Shown here: positions 12,204 through 37,440 of the stretch, piece by piece
How positions within the stretch are numbered: position 1 is the first letter of the stretch
Layout of the letters: every line of letters begins with the position of its first letter
Virus genome (UHGV): UHGV-0213570
Strand: one strand, 5' to 3'
Origin: a virus
DNA: 45,333 nucleotides
The notes under the pieces: generated by a model
Database searches by the model: none
What the model was told of the DNA's origin: nothing
Seen by the model: the letters and a program-made list of their open reading frames with translations, nothing else
Made by a program: the position numbers and the translations under genes

Positions 12204-12494
12204 ATGAGTTGCGCGCCGATATTCCCTGTCACGACATCGCTTGCTCACGACGTGATAAATAATCTTACCGCTCCTGATGGGTGTCAGTTTTACTTTGAGA
12301 ACGGGTATTCAACTTCAATTTTGATTGGTGGAAGAGATGGGTGCTACGCATACGATATAGAGAGAGGTTTTCAGATGACAATGACGTCACTTCAGAAGGC
12401 ACTAAAAATTGAGGCGGACAGGGTTGGCGCTGTGTTAACGGTGAAACAAGGTATTATACATGGAAAATTCTTGCGCGTATGGAGGGTATATTGA
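12204..12494 (+). CDS. hypothetical 96-aa protein
   Basis: ATG 12204 with RBS GGAGG. Confidence 0.45.
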   Translation: MSCAPIFPVTTSLAHDVINNLTAPDGCQFYFENGYSTSILIGGRDGCYAYDIERGFQMTMTSLQKALKIEADRVGAVLTVKQGIIHGKFLRVWRVY

Positions 12495-14074
12495 TGGGCG
12501 CTATTGATTTTGAGTCTATGGCTATGGGTATAAACAGGAAGGCTCCTGGTGCGCTTGGTGAGTTTATGGAAGAGATTGCGAAAAACTTTGAGCGCCGTAA
12601 TGATGGTGAGAGATATCGCTTAACTGGTGCCCTGGGTCTTACTCAGGCTATGGCTGGACGATATTTGATTGGTCCAACAGGTAGTATCTGCAATACTGGC
12701 ATATTTCTGGTAGCTCGCTCTGGTGCAGGTAAGGGTGCCCCTGTGAGTTTCGTCAGGGCATATGCCAATGCACTGGGAATAGGTTCCAGAGTTTGCGCAT
12801 CTAAATCGACCTCGACGAAACAGATGCAGTTAGACCTGATTGCCGGAGGCGGTTCTTTGCTCTACGTTGTGAACGATGACAAACAACATCTTGAAGACTG
12901 GAACAACCCGCGCAATGCATATCTTGGCGGCACTATGGCGTGGTATAGAGGTCTTACTGACGGCGGCGTGTGGGTTCCTAACAGGCCAATAATAAAGGAG
13001 TTGCTTGAAAACCTTACTTGGGAACAAAACCCAAAACGCATTATGGCTGCAGCAAGCGCTGAGGGATGGATAGTTCCACTTACTGGTGGTGATGATGGGA
13101 AAGGCGTCATAGATTATAAGCGCCTTGCGATGATGGACCACAGCGTTGGGCGCGCGCTCAAGTCGGCAATGAATGAGTACGAAATTGCAACAAAAGACGG
13201 TGGAATTGAAAACGCAAAATTTGTTCCGCTGATTACTGTCACTCCAGAGCAGGGAATAGATGCTGCGCGTTCATGGCAGAAAGATGGCGGTATGGGGCGA
13301 GTGCTGTTTCAGCTTGGACATCTTGCTGGTGAGGAAATGCCAGCGATGAAGGATGTGGAAGTTAGCGGCACACTTTCAAGAAAAATAATCAATGAGTGGA
13401 AAGGTAGGATTCTTACCGCAAAAACTAACGCCGTATGGGCTGATGATGATGCGAAAAAACTGCACAGATCTCTGTCTATGAAACTGGAAAGTGAGCTTGG
13501 TGATCGCGATGGTGTTGTTGGTGACGTTATCCCGCGCATGGGGCTAATGATTGTAGACCTTGCAACGCTTGCGGCTTACGCAGATCTGTCAAGTCGCCGT
13601 GGAATGACGCCAGCAGTTACGATGGAGCATGTCGAATGGGGATACATCGTGGTTCTTGAGCATCTCGCGGGTCTGCAAAGATTCCTTGAGGGCGAACAGG
13701 AGTTTGATGGACTTGAAAATACTGAATGGGAGAACATTGTAGAAAAAATTAAGCGAATTTGTGAATCACAGGCATTCATTAAAACGCCTTACTTGTCTGT
13801 TATAAAGAATAAGCTGTGTCGTGATAGAATTAAAAAGATAATCAATTCTGCTGACTCTAATAACATCACACTAACACCTGATAAGTTTGTTTATGAGGTT
13901 CTTCTTGCTATTGAGGAAAATAAGCATTCACCACTAATGCTGGACAGGGATAACCCAAGAGCCATAAAGATGTGCGGTGATGGCTCATGGGATGGTCTGC
14001 GAATGAACTCAACGGTTAGAAATTATCTTTCTGCTGCTGTTAAGCGCATGAGATTTATGAGGGGTTTGAAATGA
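12494..14074 (+). CDS. putative replication-associated NTPase with an atypical P-loop (LVARSGAGKGAP); the start could instead be 12479
   Basis: 526-aa ORF with a Walker-A-like GAGKG that lacks the usual S/T. Its position in the early operon upstream of the primase and helicase suggests replication initiation. Confidence 0.35.
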   Translation: MGAIDFESMAMGINRKAPGALGEFMEEIAKNFERRNDGERYRLTGALGLTQAMAGRYLIGPTGSICNTGIFLVARSGAGKGAPVSFVRAYANALGIGSRVCASKSTSTKQMQLDLIAGGGSLLYVVNDDKQHLEDWNNPRNAYLGGTMAWYRGLTDGGVWVPNRPIIKELLENLTWEQNPKRIMAAASAEGWIVPLTGGDDGKGVIDYKRLAMMDHSVGRALKSAMNEYEIATKDGGIENAKFVPLITVTPEQGIDAARSWQKDGGMGRVLFQLGHLAGEEMPAMKDVEVSGTLSRKIINEWKGRILTAKTNAVWADDDAKKLHRSLSMKLESELGDRDGVVGDVIPRMGLMIVDLATLAAYADLSSRRGMTPAVTMEHVEWGYIVVLEHLAGLQRFLEGEQEFDGLENTEWENIVEKIKRICESQAFIKTPYLSVIKNKLCRDRIKKIINSADSNNITLTPDKFVYEVLLAIEENKHSPLMLDRDNPRAIKMCGDGSWDGLRMNSTVRNYLSAAVKRMRFMRGLK

Positions 14075-14487
14075 GCAAAACACACGAACTTAAAATTTTA
14101 CCTGAACACTTCTGGCCTGTCGTTACCGGGCACAAGAAAGCAGAGTTAAGAAAGAATGACCGTGATTTTAAGGTTGGAGACACGATTATTCTTTATGAGT
14201 GTAATGGAGACTACACAGGAGAGAGAACAGAGAGAACCATAGTTCACATTGCTGATGTTGGCGCTTATCTTCCCGGTTATGTGCTTCTTTCCCTTAATGA
14301 GATTGCCAACTGGAAAGATGCGCGTCTTTTCGACCCTAAAGATGGACAGGAGGTTGTTATTATTGATGCTGATCGCATCAAGGTTACTGCCAGATATGAC
14401 GACTCAGGAATATACTGGTGCAATCACACGGGTAAGTCGCTGCGAAATGTAGCCTTCTGGACTGAATCGCCAGAGTTCAAAGAATAA
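14071..14487 (+). CDS. ASCH-like DUF3850 domain protein
   Basis: N-terminal sequence ELKILPEHFWPVVTGHKKAELRKNDRDFKVGDTIILYE matches the DUF3850/ASCH signature. Confidence 0.55.
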   Translation: MSKTHELKILPEHFWPVVTGHKKAELRKNDRDFKVGDTIILYECNGDYTGERTERTIVHIADVGAYLPGYVLLSLNEIANWKDARLFDPKDGQEVVIIDADRIKVTARYDDSGIYWCNHTGKSLRNVAFWTESPEFKE

Positions 14488-15576: not shown

Positions 15577-15702
15577 ATGGCTATAACCATGAAAAAGTGC
15601 AAAAACTGCGGGAGAGAATTCTATGGAACAGCAAGAGCTGAGTTCTGTTGCTCAGGATGCCGACTCAAAAACTTCAGGAAAAAAGCCGCTAATAACGCAT
15701 GA
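15577..15702 (+). CDS. zinc-ribbon mini-protein (41 aa, MAITMKKCKNCGREFYGTARAEFCCSGCRLKNFRKKAANNA)
   Basis: CxxC...CCxxC arrangement with a good RBS. It overlaps the 5-prime end of the HNH ORF in another frame. Confidence 0.4.
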   Translation: MAITMKKCKNCGREFYGTARAEFCCSGCRLKNFRKKAANNA

Positions 15703-16177
15703 TGAGTTAATAAAAACGCTTTCATACGATGAAAGCACTGGTGTTTTTCGTTGGTTGGTAAATCGAAAGAAAGCAAAGATTGGTGATATTGCTGGCTCAA
15801 AATGCACCAACGGTTATTTGAAATTTACCGTAAATGGCAAGTGTTATCTAGCTCATAGAGTTGCATGGTTTTATGTAAATGGGAAGTGGCCAAATGCTGA
15901 GATAGACCACATAAACTGTATTAAAACAGATAACAGGATTTGCAACTTAAGAGAGGCAAGCAGAAATGAAAATTCCTGGAATAAGAGAAGACAGCAAAAC
16001 AATACTAGCGGAGTTAAAGGTGTTTATTGGTGTAAAAAGGCAGGCAAGTGGAGAGCTATGTGCAGGGTTAATGGGAAAAAATATAGTGTTGGCCTTTTCT
16101 CTGATATCAATGATGCTGCAATTGCTCTTAGAAATTACAGAAATAAAAATCATAAAAATTTTTCAAGAAATGGGTGA
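15623..16177 (+). CDS. HNH homing endonuclease with an AP2 domain (the true start may lie downstream)
   Basis: HNH motif EIDHINCIKTDNRICNLREASRNENSWN followed by AP2-like NTSGVKGVYW...YSVGLFSDINDAAIALRNY. Confidence 0.75.
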   Translation: MEQQELSSVAQDADSKTSGKKPLITHDELIKTLSYDESTGVFRWLVNRKKAKIGDIAGSKCTNGYLKFTVNGKCYLAHRVAWFYVNGKWPNAEIDHINCIKTDNRICNLREASRNENSWNKRRQQNNTSGVKGVYWCKKAGKWRAMCRVNGKKYSVGLFSDINDAAIALRNYRNKNHKNFSRNG

Positions 16178-31932: not shown

Positions 31933-32009
31933 GGACGCGTAGCTTAATTGGTTAAAGCAACCGACTCATAATCGGCTGATTGAAGGTTCAAATCCGTCCG
32001 TGCCCACCA
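31933..32009 (+). tRNA. tRNA with anticodon CAT (Met, fMet or Ile2-lysidine type), CCA encoded
   Basis: Cloverleaf fold: acceptor GGACGCG/CGTGCCC (one A.C mismatch, one G.U pair), U8, D-stem GCTT/AAGC, D-loop with GG, anticodon loop CTCATAA, T-loop GTTCAAATC, ACCA end. Confidence 0.75.
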
Positions 32010-34441: not shown

Positions 34442-34470
34442 TTGACGTAGATTGATGAGGCGTTTATAGT
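34442..34470 (+). promoter_or_regulatory. promoter TTGACG-N17-TATAGT with TTGACGTAGATTGATG and GTGACGTAGAAAC boxes
   Basis: Precedes RBS GAGGTGA and ATG 34512. Confidence 0.5.
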
Positions 34471-34511
34471 TAGTGACGTAGAAACAACAATAAATGTTAG
34501 AGGTGAATGAG

Positions 34512-34829
34512 ATGAAAGATGTATTCAAAGGTACAAAAGGCCCGTGGGCATTCAAGAAAGAAAAAGGCGAGCAGGAGTGGTTTGTGTTTCAGGCAGGCAC
34601 GTTAAAGAAAAGATATGGCGGTACTATCAGAACTCCAGTGGCAGAAGAAATTAATGATAAACATGACGCCCAACTTATCGCCTCGGCACCAGAATTACTC
34701 GAAGCACTCCGCCAGCTTCGCGATTACGTTGAGGATGTTTGCGCAGTATCTTCTGATGATTGTCATGAAGATCATCCATTAAATCTGGCGAACAAAGCAA
34801 TCAAGAAAGCATTAGGAAAGAAACAATGA
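34512..34829 (+). CDS. A-family small protein, paralog of 1287..1586
   Basis: Motifs FKGTKGPW and DAQLIASAPELLEALRQL, ending KAIKKALGK. Its stop overlaps the ParB-like gene start. Confidence 0.6.
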   Translation: MKDVFKGTKGPWAFKKEKGEQEWFVFQAGTLKKRYGGTIRTPVAEEINDKHDAQLIASAPELLEALRQLRDYVEDVCAVSSDDCHEDHPLNLANKAIKKALGKKQ

Positions 34830-35635
34830 AAACACTCAGCAAAATCTATTCAGACAAAGAGACGCGTAACGGCATCGCTGTAAACAAAACCTATCTTGTG
34901 CCAGTTGAGCAAATCTATCTGGAACCGGGATATAACATCCGTGAAGCGGACGAGCAACACGTTGAATATTTCGCGCAGTGCTGGGAATCAGGTCAGCCGC
35001 TGCCAGCATTAACAGTTATTCCAGACGAGAAAGGAATACGCATTCTTGATGGTCAGCATCGCTATCTCGGTGCATTGCGTGCCATTGAGCGCGGCGCGCC
35101 AATCGTTCGTATTGAGTGCAAGGATTTCACTGGCGACGAGGCTGACAAAATCGCCTTCATGGTGTCATCCAGTCAAGGGAAACAGCTCGACCCGTTTGAG
35201 CGCGCAAAGGCTTATACGCGACTGAAAGGCTTTGGTTGGACTAACGAAGAAATCGCCAGGAAGGTAGGCCGCTCAGTATCTGACGTGCAGATGCATCTGT
35301 CACTGGGTGATGTGCCAGCCGAAGTGAAAGCGCGCATCAGTGCAGGACAAATCAGCTATGCAAATGCCGTAGCAGTAACGCGTGAGCATGGCGATGATGC
35401 GGTTAAAGTTATCGACGAAGCAGTAGAAGAAGCAAAGGCGCAAGGAAAGGATAAGGTCACGGCGAAGGTGCTGAAGTCGAAAAAGATTAAGCCAGTAGAC
35501 CGTCTGATTGAGTTATTGAAGCCAGCAGACCACGTGATTCTCCCTGCTGGTCATGTGGTAGCAGAGGATGAGGAGTTTATCCAGATTCCTGTTGCTGATA
35601 TTCATGAGGTCATGGCAATTCTGGAGAAGATGTGA
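34826..35635 (+). CDS. ParB-like nuclease domain protein
   Basis: ParB/Srx N-terminal signature IRILDGQHRYLGALRA, followed by a K/E-rich C-terminal region. Confidence 0.6.
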   Translation: MKTLSKIYSDKETRNGIAVNKTYLVPVEQIYLEPGYNIREADEQHVEYFAQCWESGQPLPALTVIPDEKGIRILDGQHRYLGALRAIERGAPIVRIECKDFTGDEADKIAFMVSSSQGKQLDPFERAKAYTRLKGFGWTNEEIARKVGRSVSDVQMHLSLGDVPAEVKARISAGQISYANAVAVTREHGDDAVKVIDEAVEEAKAQGKDKVTAKVLKSKKIKPVDRLIELLKPADHVILPAGHVVAEDEEFIQIPVADIHEVMAILEKM

Positions 35636-35835
35636 TGATTACAATTGGTACGCTGGCAACAAATATAAATGTTGGTGATTTTATTCTTTTGCCAAATGGA
35701 TATACCGAAGAAGTTGCGAAAGTGCATCATCAGGAGAATATAGTTTGCCTGGAATTTGTCAGGAAAGGAGGGGCAATTAAATCAAGATGGTGGCTTATGA
35801 TTGATGAGGTTGCCAGCGTCGTGGAGAGTTGGTAA
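35632..35835 (+). CDS. hypothetical 67-aa protein
   Basis: Coupled ORF. Confidence 0.4.
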   Translation: MMITIGTLATNINVGDFILLPNGYTEEVAKVHHQENIVCLEFVRKGGAIKSRWWLMIDEVASVVESW

Positions 35836-36008
35836 TGACACCAGAACAATTCATCGAAAAACAACTTCGCGCCAAGCTGCTTGACATCGACCAGATGGCA
35901 ATTGATGCGGCGATTCAGTATTACAGGCGTCACCAGAGCGCAAAGAAGGGTGGCATTTTTGAAGAATGCCTGAAAGTTGCAAAACAACACATGATTAAGG
36001 TGAAGTGA
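35835..36008 (+). CDS. hypothetical 57-aa protein
   Basis: TAATG overlap with the upstream gene. Not in the ORF track. Confidence 0.35.
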   Translation: MTPEQFIEKQLRAKLLDIDQMAIDAAIQYYRRHQSAKKGGIFEECLKVAKQHMIKVK

Positions 36009-36547
36009 TGAAACTAAAAATAAGTAAATTATTGCTTGAATCAGCATTAATATTTCAGGCGCGAAATGATGTTCGTTACTACCTGAACGGAATCTGCTTT
36101 ATGCCTGATGGTCGCATTGCATCAACTGACGGTCATCGCGCATTTATTGGCGGCAGCCATGACAGCGAGATTGCTGAAAATATAATTGTAAAGGTCAGCA
36201 AGTGTCCGACAAAGAAATATAACCATGCGATAATCGATACAAAATCTGGAATCGTTACCTATCATTTTGGTCATATGGACACAATGGTTGGTGCTGGTAT
36301 CTGCGAAGAGATTGATGGTCGATTCCCTGATATTGATCGTGTTATACCTAAGGAAACGAAAGCAGTAGAGGAGATTGGATTTAATGCTGGCTATCTGGTT
36401 GATATTGAGAAAGTGGCGAAGCTGTTTAATCCTAAATTCCGTGGTGTCAAATTTGAACTGAATGGAAACACAAATGCCGCAGCTTGCTGTCTTAGTGCTC
36501 CATCTGGCGAGACTGCGAAGATTGTTGTTATGCCGGTGCGTCTGTAG
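36005..36547 (+). CDS. half-size DnaN (DNA polymerase III beta sliding clamp)-like protein
   Basis: Recognisable DnaN blocks: NDVRYYLNGICF (DnaN HQDVRYYLNGMLF), STDGHRAF (ATDGHRLA), DGRFPDIDRVIPK (DGRFPDYRRVLPK), KFRGVKFEL (KFRGVRLYV) and the C-terminus IVVMPVRL (YVVMPMRL). It is only 180 aa, whereas DnaN is about 366. Confidence 0.6.
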   Translation: MMKLKISKLLLESALIFQARNDVRYYLNGICFMPDGRIASTDGHRAFIGGSHDSEIAENIIVKVSKCPTKKYNHAIIDTKSGIVTYHFGHMDTMVGAGICEEIDGRFPDIDRVIPKETKAVEEIGFNAGYLVDIEKVAKLFNPKFRGVKFELNGNTNAAACCLSAPSGETAKIVVMPVRL

Positions 36548-36552
36548 CAATA

Positions 36553-36581
36553 AAAAGCCCCGTGAAGGGGCTTTTCTTTTA
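36553..36581. terminator. terminator ending the A-prime/ParB/DnaN-like cassette
   Basis: Hairpin AAAGCCCCG-TGAA-GGGGCTTT followed by TCTTTTAT. Confidence 0.7.
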
Positions 36582-37400
36582 TCACGCCAGATAAGTATCA
36601 TCCTCAAACCACGAGACATACGCATTGATATTCTGCACCGCAGTATCCAGAGAGGTGATGCGCAGCAGGTAGGTGGTATTAGGCGCCATGATGATCTGCT
36701 CACCTAGTATTGCCTGCGAATTACCCTGCCCCTGATTAGATGCGTTACCCTCGCTATATGTTGCTGCGACAGTCAGTTGTCCAATACTTGTGATCGTGGA
36801 GCCAGTCAGAAGCTGCGCCGTTGCAGTATGCGACGCTATGTCATTTGGGTTATTAATCTCCGCAGCAGTGCCGCCAGTGGCTACAGCTCCACGGTAGATT
36901 GACGCTACGACACCCTTACCGGTGTAGCCGATGATGCGTTGATTAAAAACGACCTGTTTTGAGCCGGTAATAAAAATACTGTCAAGGTTAGCTCCGCCAG
37001 CAACGTCAGTCACGCGACGCGATGCGGTGAATAACTTCCCTTGCTTGTTAGCAAACTCTGCATAGGGCTGCGCGACAACCTGACTTGATGGTACTGATGT
37101 GGCAGATCGCCATACCAGGACTTTCAGGGATGCAATGCCAGCAGGTATCTGTGACTTGATCACCTTCAGTCGCAGCGCTACGCCATAATAATTATTATTG
37201 TTAACGTCAATCCAGAAATCACCGGATGAAAACGGCGATACCATTACAGAAATAGATCCGCCTGTTAATGGCTCATAGCCACCGGAAGAATTTAGCGGCA
37301 CAATCTGCACCTGTAATGCTGACCAGTCCGCAGACATGGTTTCGCTAAGCAAAACCTCTCCATCATCCGGAGTTGTGTTTATTTCGTATCTTACAGCCAT
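36582..37400 (-). CDS. structural protein of unknown role (272 aa, Thr/Gly/Ser-rich)
   Basis: ORF downstream of the capsid genes. No recognisable motif. Confidence 0.35.
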   Translation of the reverse strand: MAVRYEINTTPDDGEVLLSETMSADWSALQVQIVPLNSSGGYEPLTGGSISVMVSPFSSGDFWIDVNNNNYYGVALRLKVIKSQIPAGIASLKVLVWRSATSVPSSQVVAQPYAEFANKQGKLFTASRRVTDVAGGANLDSIFITGSKQVVFNQRIIGYTGKGVVASIYRGAVATGGTAAEINNPNDIASHTATAQLLTGSTITSIGQLTVAATYSEGNASNQGQGNSQAILGEQIIMAPNTTYLLRITSLDTAVQNINAYVSWFEDDTYLA

Positions 37401-37440
37401 AGGAACCCCCAATAAAAAACCCGCATTATGCGGGTTCAGT

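Follow-up and report, generated by a model that had tools for sequence, protein, structure and literature searches.

A half-size phage homologue of DnaN predicted to keep the clamp-binding-motif pocket and to lack the parts that close the ring

What use could a phage make of half a bacterial sliding clamp? The question is raised by UHGV virus genome UHGV-0213570, a stretch of 45,333 nucleotides analysed here as a whole and called the window below, in which a gene at positions 36005-36547 encodes a protein resembling the beta sliding clamp (DnaN) of Escherichia coli at about half its length. An earlier interpretation made without database searches (the sequence-only reading) had taken the product for a compressed clamp of a phage without polymerase, which would pair with or poison host beta (option a), act as an adaptor that loads the host polymerase on phage DNA (option b) or sequester clamp-binding host factors (option c). 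Our comparison of sequences and predicted folds indicates that the truncation of this protein, which we call the mini-clamp, strips exactly the ring-forming parts of DnaN and spares exactly its docking pocket, and that it does so across a large and old phage family. This pattern is what the present analysis adds; a short DnaN-like phage gene as such is already known from public records.

Homology to DnaN and the parts that are missing

The listing of open reading frames (ORFs) of the window confirms the mini-clamp frame at 36005..36547 on the plus strand. The frame proposed earlier is thus real, whereas its product is 179 amino acids long, counted from ATG 36008, and not 180. This ATG is most likely the translation start rather than GTG 36005, because it overlaps the upstream stop codon (ATGA), is preceded at 5 nt by a Shine-Dalgarno sequence and matches the homologues, which all start with MKLK. 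The product has a mass of 19.7 kDa and an isoelectric point (pI) of 8.2.

The mini-clamp is a truncated homologue of DnaN, as had been proposed, with a similarity well beyond chance. A phmmer search against the sequences of the Protein Data Bank (PDB) gave an E-value of 5.8e-13 to enterobacterial beta clamps, aligning residues 7-155 to DnaN 136-289 and, in a second weak stretch, residues 119-179 to DnaN 313-366. When a profile of 138 family members was compared by hhalign with E. coli DnaN (the reference sequence used is identical to 1MMI), the probability was 99.4% and the E-value 1e-21. AlphaFold2, supplied with the 138-sequence alignment and its distant representatives, returned a model with a predicted local distance difference test score (pLDDT) of 97.3 and a predicted template modelling score (pTM) of 0.91; an alignment of 17 close homologues alone had given a useless model (pLDDT 40.6), a defect cured by the larger alignment. 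All of the top 50 Foldseek matches of this model in the PDB are beta clamps (E 5e-8, query-normalised template modelling score (TMq) 0.65), and BFVD models of phage homologues reach a TMq of up to 0.89. Profile, Foldseek and AlphaFold comparisons thus agree in giving significant similarity to DnaN, and the predicted structure has the clamp fold with its repeated beta-alpha-beta-beta-beta units.

The half length does not reflect a compressed clamp, as the sequence-only reading had it, but the loss of defined modules, namely domain I, the first half of domain III and helix alpha2 of domain II. In the hhalign alignment the coverage runs over DnaN 128-253 (domain II) and resumes at 313-366, where the second beta-alpha-beta-beta-beta unit of domain III lies. 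DnaN domain I (1-127) and the first half of domain III (254-312) have no counterpart in the mini-clamp. The assignment of the C-terminal part to the second unit is specific: the C-terminal 64 residues alone, used as an hhalign sub-profile, matched DnaN 310-366 with a probability of 97.5% (E 9e-12), compared with 4.6% (E 0.009) for DnaN 250-312. Within the domain II equivalent, the AlphaFold2 model has no helix between strands 59-63 and 73-77, the site of DnaN helix alpha2. The coding sequence and its parts are as follows.

36008..36547, plus strand: mini-clamp coding sequence (179 amino acids and stop), a member of phrog_3007, identified by the ORF, the ATG/TGA overlap, the Shine-Dalgarno sequence, the phrog_3007 match, DnaN homology and the dN/dS ratio
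36008..36361, plus strand: residues 1-118, equivalent to DnaN domain II (E. coli ~128-253), from hhalign and the AlphaFold2 secondary structure
36197-36223, plus strand: loop SKCPTKKYN in place of the second inner helix of domain II, from the AlphaFold2 secondary structure
36362..36544, plus strand: residues 119-179, equivalent to the second half of DnaN domain III (E. coli 313-366), from the hhalign sub-profile and anchor spacing

The missing modules are those that hold the clamp together. The E. coli beta dimer is held by I78 and F106 on I272 and L273, together with ion pairs of K74, R96, R103 and R105 with E298-E304 (PMC11139829). Every one of these residues falls in DnaN 1-127 or 254-312, both of which are absent from the mini-clamp. 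With these parts and one inner helix gone, the aligned sequence implies that the mini-clamp cannot form the canonical head-to-tail beta dimer or the canonical ring. Option (a), a heterodimer with host beta, loses its canonical basis in the same way, as all interface residues lie in the missing parts. The missing interface also argues against a mini-clamp that encircles DNA and gives Pol III (DNA polymerase III) its processivity. Nor does the protein have the complete domains II and III of a two-domain clamp of the beta* type, since the equivalent of 254-312 is absent.

Curated family models place the mini-clamp beside DnaN rather than within it. The TIGR00663 score is 36.7 bits against a cut-off of 137.65, and the Pfam models PF02767 (16.7 bits) and PF02768 (13.3 bits) both stay below their cut-off of 27; Pfam gave no PF00712 match in the mini-clamp protein. 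The mini-clamp fits phrog_3007 over its full length (E 1e-60), residues 1-179 aligning against profile positions 1-186 of 190, and phrog_947, the family of full-length phage beta clamps, matches over its profile positions 146-287 (E 6.5e-11). Full DnaN membership therefore fails on the three-domain architecture of ~366 amino acids, on the curated thresholds and on the interface, and passes on the fold and the pocket.

The retained pocket and its conservation

In the DnaN fold, the docking pocket lies where the domain II strand 172-177 meets the C-terminal domain III strand 360-366. Thus, the piece retained by the mini-clamp is the smallest contiguous unit with the whole pocket. Subsite I comprises R152, L155, T172, G174, H175, R176, L177, P242, R246, V247, V360 and M362, and subsite II comprises H175, N320, Y323, V344, M362, P363, M364 and R365 (PMC11139829). 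Fifteen of these 18 residues are identical in the mini-clamp, the changes being L177A, V344T and M364V. The segments that carry the pocket are listed here.

36074..36091, plus strand: RYYLNG, E. coli R152-G157, subsite I (R152, L155)
36125..36142, plus strand: TDGHRA, E. coli T172-L177, subsite I and the H175 bridge
36326..36343, plus strand: PDIDRV, E. coli P242-V247, subsite I
36383..36394, plus strand: NAGY, E. coli N320-Y323, subsite II
36524..36544, plus strand: VVMPVRL, E. coli V360-L366, subsites I and II and the M362 bridge

Four of the five sequence blocks that had been named as DnaN hallmarks, DVRYYLNG, TDGHR, DGRFPDxxRVxPK and VVMPVRL, are present and align to E. coli DnaN 150-157, 172-176, 238-250 and 360-366. 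Judged by this alignment, these four blocks and a GFNAGY segment that had not been listed are the pocket. The fifth block, KFRGV, had to be given up as a hallmark: it matches DnaN 277-281, in the absent part of domain III, and it is not conserved in the family. Even close relatives read KFSSV, KFCDV or KYEAV at this position. Because of this variability, near and family-wide, we regard KFRGV as a lineage-specific resemblance to the internal repeat.

The pocket is also the best preserved part of the family. Over the 138 members, the pocket columns have a mean conservation of 0.72 against 0.37 elsewhere (permutation p<1e-5), and 9 of the 12 most conserved columns belong to the pocket (G174, R152, P242, M362, Y323, H175, L155, P363 and T172). 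This family is large and uniform in size. An exhaustive profile search over 1.84 billion representatives gave 4413 hits; among the best 150 clusters (50% identity), about 140 are proteins of 170-220 amino acids, which puts the family at no fewer than some 140 such clusters, and the first full-length DnaN appears at about rank 143. The median pairwise identity in the alignment used for the conservation statistics is 29%. Uniformity extends to the internal spacing. Between the N-terminus and the R152 equivalent the median distance is 21 residues, compared with 151 in E. coli, and the P242-to-Y323 spacing is 20-28 residues in 138/138 members, compared with 80 in E. coli.

The ratio of nonsynonymous to synonymous substitution rates (dN/dS) against the orthologue of phage swi2 is 0.15. 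Because the architecture is uniform across the family and this ratio is low, the mini-clamp is, on the evidence of the alignments, an old design under purifying selection and not debris or a recent dnaN fragment. Recent capture of the host dnaN gene was rejected as well, as no DNA similarity was found among 5,426 complete E. coli genomes. BFVD also contains phage clamp-like proteins of greater length (240-266 amino acids), including A0A0A0RQG5 of Escherichia phage Seurat (246 amino acids), G9FGZ4 of Rhodococcus phage REQ2 (266 amino acids) and A0A6J5PNH4 (250 amino acids). They may represent two-domain intermediates between full DnaN and the 1.5-domain form.

Public records describe members of the family in conflicting terms. 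The labels include 'DNA polymerase III beta subunit', 'DNA polymerase' and, in a GenBank note on Bcep781 gp15, 'DNA Pol III b subunit fragment', and phrog_3007 as well as many RefSeq records (among them NC_054649, NC_054648 and NC_054636) carry 'RusA-like Holliday junction resolvase'. The last two labels are the basis for supposing that the gene is a decaying, non-functional dnaN fragment or a RusA-like resolvase, and this explanation is for practical purposes refuted. A decaying fragment would have to be reconciled with the dN/dS ratio, with the shared size of the best clusters and with the lack of DNA similarity to E. coli genomes. A resolvase would have to be reconciled with the Pfam search, which gave DnaN domains only and no RusA family even at E-values up to 10, and with structural neighbours that are all sliding clamps. 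The RusA-like label therefore looks like a propagated mis-annotation. Neither Pfam nor NCBIfam has a dedicated model for the family, full-text literature searches turned up no work on its function or structure, and no member seems to have a solved structure, because no PDB entry matches better than a full-length clamp.

Gene neighbourhood and occurrence in other phages

The window comes from a Swiduovirus-like enterobacterial siphophage with ~90% DNA identity to Escherichia phage HC6 in this region and the gene order of phage swi2. It encodes a DnaG-type primase, an SF2 helicase, a P-loop NTPase of 531 amino acids, ExoVIII, Erf and a single-stranded DNA-binding protein (SSB), and no ORF of the window has similarity to a DNA polymerase, nor does any in the fully annotated relative swi2. 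The earlier statement that the phage has primase, helicase, SSB and recombination proteins and lacks a polymerase holds for the window. A phage clamp loader is not encoded in this phage either. The 531-amino-acid protein (12479-14074, plus strand) has Walker A (RSGAGKG) and Walker B (LLYVVNDD) motifs and no Pfam or NCBIfam match; it weakly matches the C-terminal part of the primase family phrog_3022, and its relatives share 47-57% identity. On these sequence features it is a candidate for the initiator or replicative NTPase of this polymerase-less phage. A gene for a DUF3850/ASCH-domain protein (14071-14487, plus strand) directly follows the NTPase gene. Between the primase and helicase genes lies an HNH endonuclease gene (15623-16177, plus strand), probably a homing endonuclease insertion, and a single tRNA-Met (CAT) gene stands at 31933-32009 on the plus strand, as it also does in phage swi2.

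The mini-clamp gene is the last of five plus-strand ORFs (34494-36547) that form a cassette flanked by minus-strand structural genes. The proposal of an opposite-strand cassette with its own promoter and terminator is borne out by these five ORFs, a sigma-70-like site with 10 of 12 consensus matches and a strong hairpin.

34442..34470, plus strand: sigma-70-like promoter candidate TTGACG-17-TATAGT before the cassette, 10/12 consensus matches
34494-34829, plus strand: phrog_1273 protein, cassette gene upstream of the mini-clamp
34826-35635, plus strand: ParB-like protein with an HTH_ParB/KorB domain, cassette gene
35632-35835, plus strand: ORF of 67 amino acids, cassette gene
35829-36008, plus strand: phrog_4439 protein, cassette gene directly before the mini-clamp
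35997..36002, plus strand: AAGGTG ribosome-binding site, 5 nt ahead of the ATG, read directly in the sequence
36553..36575, no strand assigned: GC-rich hairpin terminator (9-bp stem, then a T run) between the convergent mini-clamp gene and the minus-strand structural gene 36582-37412

The hairpin at 36553-36575 also has an A run upstream, and by this composition it could terminate transcription in both directions. The strongest sigma-70-like match of the region (ATGACA-16-TATAAT, 11/12) lies at 36159-36186 on the plus strand, within the mini-clamp ORF on its coding strand, and represents either chance or an internal promoter.

A tblastn search found the mini-clamp protein in 303 phage records from many genera; the copy in Escherichia phage ClaudiaMuster_Bas77 is 82% identical. 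The following phages illustrate the range of gene contexts and replication equipment.

fFiEco03 (Kagunavirus): lone gene on the opposite strand within the head module; own PolA
rolling (Dhillonvirus): on the opposite strand with one upstream ORF, within the head module; putative DNA polymerase of 764 amino acids, annotated as similar to that of phage K1ind1
Bcep781 (Burkholderia): isolated among structural genes, on the strand opposite to theirs
RS10pmA (Proteus): same placement as in Bcep781
Hafnia phage yong1 (lambdoid): between cII and O/P-type replication genes; no polymerase in the 6.5 kb examined
Acinetobacter phage 4316: immediately behind a PolA of its own
Pseudomonas phage D14E: a ParB-like gene and a C5-methylase are close by
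Morganella phage Mm5 (T4-like Straboviridae): among early hypothetical genes

Lambdoid phages replicate by host Pol III, and T4-like Straboviridae have their own clamp and polymerase. The argument that a phage lacking a polymerase needs the mini-clamp as a Pol III adaptor is therefore not general, as the same family occurs in PolA phages (Kagunavirus, Dhillonvirus and Acinetobacter phage 4316) and in a T4-like phage. Since phages of every replication strategy are represented, it is unlikely that the family serves one type of replisome exclusively, and a shared partner is more likely to be a host factor, i.e., a member of the host clamp-client network. A strict motif scan of all coding frames of the window detected no canonical clamp-binding motif, and none was detected in three phage PolAs or in the neighbouring genes of other phages. 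Looser candidates did not hold up. QLDLI in the 531-amino-acid protein lies between Walker A and Walker B and reads QTSMI or KERLI in orthologues, and the hexameric clamp-binding pattern is matched by QMHLSL of the ParB-like protein, but within its helix-turn-helix (HTH) domain, and this candidate was rejected. A phage-encoded partner with a clamp-binding motif was accordingly rejected after the scans of the window, the PolAs and the neighbours.

In five unrelated genera the gene is embedded in the head or structural module and reads in the opposite direction; it is alone in three of them and has upstream same-strand ORFs in Dhillonvirus and in the window. The opposite-strand loci are L002 (19962-20483), L004 (3998-4510), L005 (3998-4579), L006 (3998-4495) and the window (34494-36547). 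One possibility is that this recurrent placement lets the gene be expressed early, until converging late transcription silences it. Additionally, a ParB-like protein and sometimes a C5 DNA methylase recur near the mini-clamp in Swiduovirus-like phages and in Pseudomonas phage D14E (window 34826-35635; L017 1049-2655; L015 801-5447), and the cassette of HC6 also holds a C5-methylase.

Possible roles and known systems

We tentatively favour, with somewhat less than even confidence, a role for the mini-clamp as an off-ring receptor that cannot join a ring, binds host clamp-binding motifs in competition with host beta, and diverts or sequesters one or more clients early in infection. The beta pocket accepts peptides of the QL[SD]LF type from Pol III alpha and epsilon, delta, Pol II, Pol IV, Pol V, Hda, MutS, MutL, ligase and Pol I. 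Host RNA polymerase would probably transcribe the gene from its own sigma-70-type promoter, with the cassette running against the late structural genes. The retained unit, domain II with the second half of domain III, would form the hydrophobic pocket, and the mini-clamp, off DNA or loosely associated with it, would capture the clamp-binding motifs of host proteins. Through competition with host beta, one or more host clients would then be diverted or sequestered early. A precedent for such an off-ring pocket may be seen in the engineered monomeric beta I272A/L273A. Of the earlier options, both the adaptor (b) and sequestration (c) fit the selective retention of the pocket.

Several of our observations weigh against the off-ring receptor. 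This phage and Hafnia phage yong1 must use host Pol III, and blanket sequestration of clients would hurt them; therefore the client would have to be selective, the expression limited, or the protein would act positively. The family is basic, with a median pI of 8.3 compared with 5.25 for E. coli DnaN and 5.8 for the equivalent DnaN segment, and K or R recurs at positions 11, 19, 65, 69, 135, 138 and 143. By analogy with the DnaN fold, these conserved residues would lie on or beside inner helices, which hints at DNA binding and favours a tether. Some pocket residues also lie at the domain II/III junction, and part of the pocket conservation could be structural in origin. Furthermore, the promoter candidate at 34442-34470 is a consensus match alone, and the whole region is no richer in such matches than shuffles.

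Because Pol III-dependent phages cannot afford blanket sequestration, the main rival is a loader-independent tether or adaptor, whose basic inner face would sit on phage DNA or a replication protein and whose pocket would recruit Pol III or another client, much as the non-ring herpesvirus UL42 does. We consider this rather unlikely. The conserved K/R residues on or beside the channel-lining helices of DnaN speak for it, as do the kept pocket, the lack of a polymerase in this phage and a position adjoining replication genes in yong1 (cII to O/P-type) and in Acinetobacter phage 4316 (after PolA). However, the family is also found in T4-like and PolA phages, which have no need of Pol III and whose PolAs carry no clamp-binding motif, and one inner helix has been lost rather than kept. 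Moreover, monomeric beta cannot tether Pol III for processive synthesis (PMC11139829).

The same retained pocket, with everything for clamp function lost, would suit a protective decoy that absorbs host, prophage or plasmid proteins attacking the beta pocket (SocB-type toxins or clamp-directed inhibitors) and so keeps replication running, and the patchy, accessory-like distribution over unrelated phages, often as a lone gene, is consistent with such a role. We nevertheless hold it improbable. It is purely inferential, we know of no clamp-targeting defence system in enterobacteria, phages that bring a full replisome would have little to gain from it, and membership of a defence or anti-defence family was set aside after PADLOC gave no match in the cassette. 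More doubtful still is a true clamp of different build, in which the exposed half-domain would pair with that of a second copy, rebuilding a pseudo-domain from the two domain III halves and giving a dimeric arc or a four-subunit ring with 12 beta-alpha-beta-beta-beta units around DNA. Such a ring, with pockets on both faces, might load onto phage DNA and there bring in host Pol III or other clients without drawing on the host's own beta. In its favour, three half-domains in four subunits give the 12 units of the beta dimer; the basic residues are conserved, and the clamp fold has pseudo-twofold symmetry at both kinds of interface. Against this, the canonical interface residues are absent, one of three inner helices is missing and the phage encodes no clamp loader, and alternate subunits would show their pockets on opposite faces, leaving only half toward a loader or polymerase. 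If true, the four-subunit ring would be a sliding-clamp architecture unseen before.

If instead the off-ring receptor that we prefer is true, the consequences reach beyond this phage. The beta pocket is a hub that coordinates polymerases, the clamp loader, mismatch repair and initiation control, and it is also an antibiotic target. A natural and widespread phage protein that keeps the pocket alone would represent a new viral route into this hub, by imitating the docking site and not by blocking it. The identity of the captured client could reveal a host clamp-dependent process that limits or harms phage growth. The mini-clamp would also give structural and inhibitor studies a minimal pocket domain that is ready for use and probably monomeric, and the assignment would correct a mis-annotation ('RusA-like resolvase', 'DNA polymerase') spread over hundreds of phage records.

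Known clamps share parts of this design. E. coli DnaN (P0A988; PDB 2POL, 1MMI) has 366 amino acids compared with 179 and is acidic, whereas the mini-clamp is basic. The best functional analogue of our proposal is the engineered monomeric beta I272A/L273A (PDB 1JQL), in which, like in the mini-clamp, the ring is not closed and the pocket is kept; in the mutant this pocket works. It binds delta ~50-fold tighter than the dimer does, and it cannot tether Pol III (PMC11139829). The difference is that the engineered protein is a laboratory mutant with all three domains, and the mini-clamp is a natural, conserved protein of 1.5 domains. A natural product in E. coli is almost the same at its N-terminal boundary. 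A UV-induced 26-kDa form named beta*, described by Paz-Elizur, Skaliter and Livneh (J Biol Chem 1996), reportedly starts at an internal site of dnaN near M135 and assembles into a working ring. Its start nearly equals that of the mini-clamp (~128), and domain I is absent from both, but beta* has the whole of domain III, half of which is missing in the mini-clamp.

Viral proteins provide the remaining comparisons. The phrog_947 clamps and T4 gp45 are, like the mini-clamp, phage-encoded proteins with the clamp fold; however, they are complete ring-formers that work with phage polymerases and loaders, neither of which this phage encodes. The herpesvirus proteins UL42, UL44, BMRF1 and PF-8 are distant relatives, with two full domains, binding to their own polymerase and no pocket for bacterial-type clamp-binding motifs. 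Interference of phages with the clamp and clamp-loader hub has a precedent in Twort Gp168 on beta (PDB 7EVP), and N4 gp8 targets the delta subunit. Both have folds unrelated to that of the mini-clamp and bind the clamp or its loader, whereas the mini-clamp would imitate the docking site itself.

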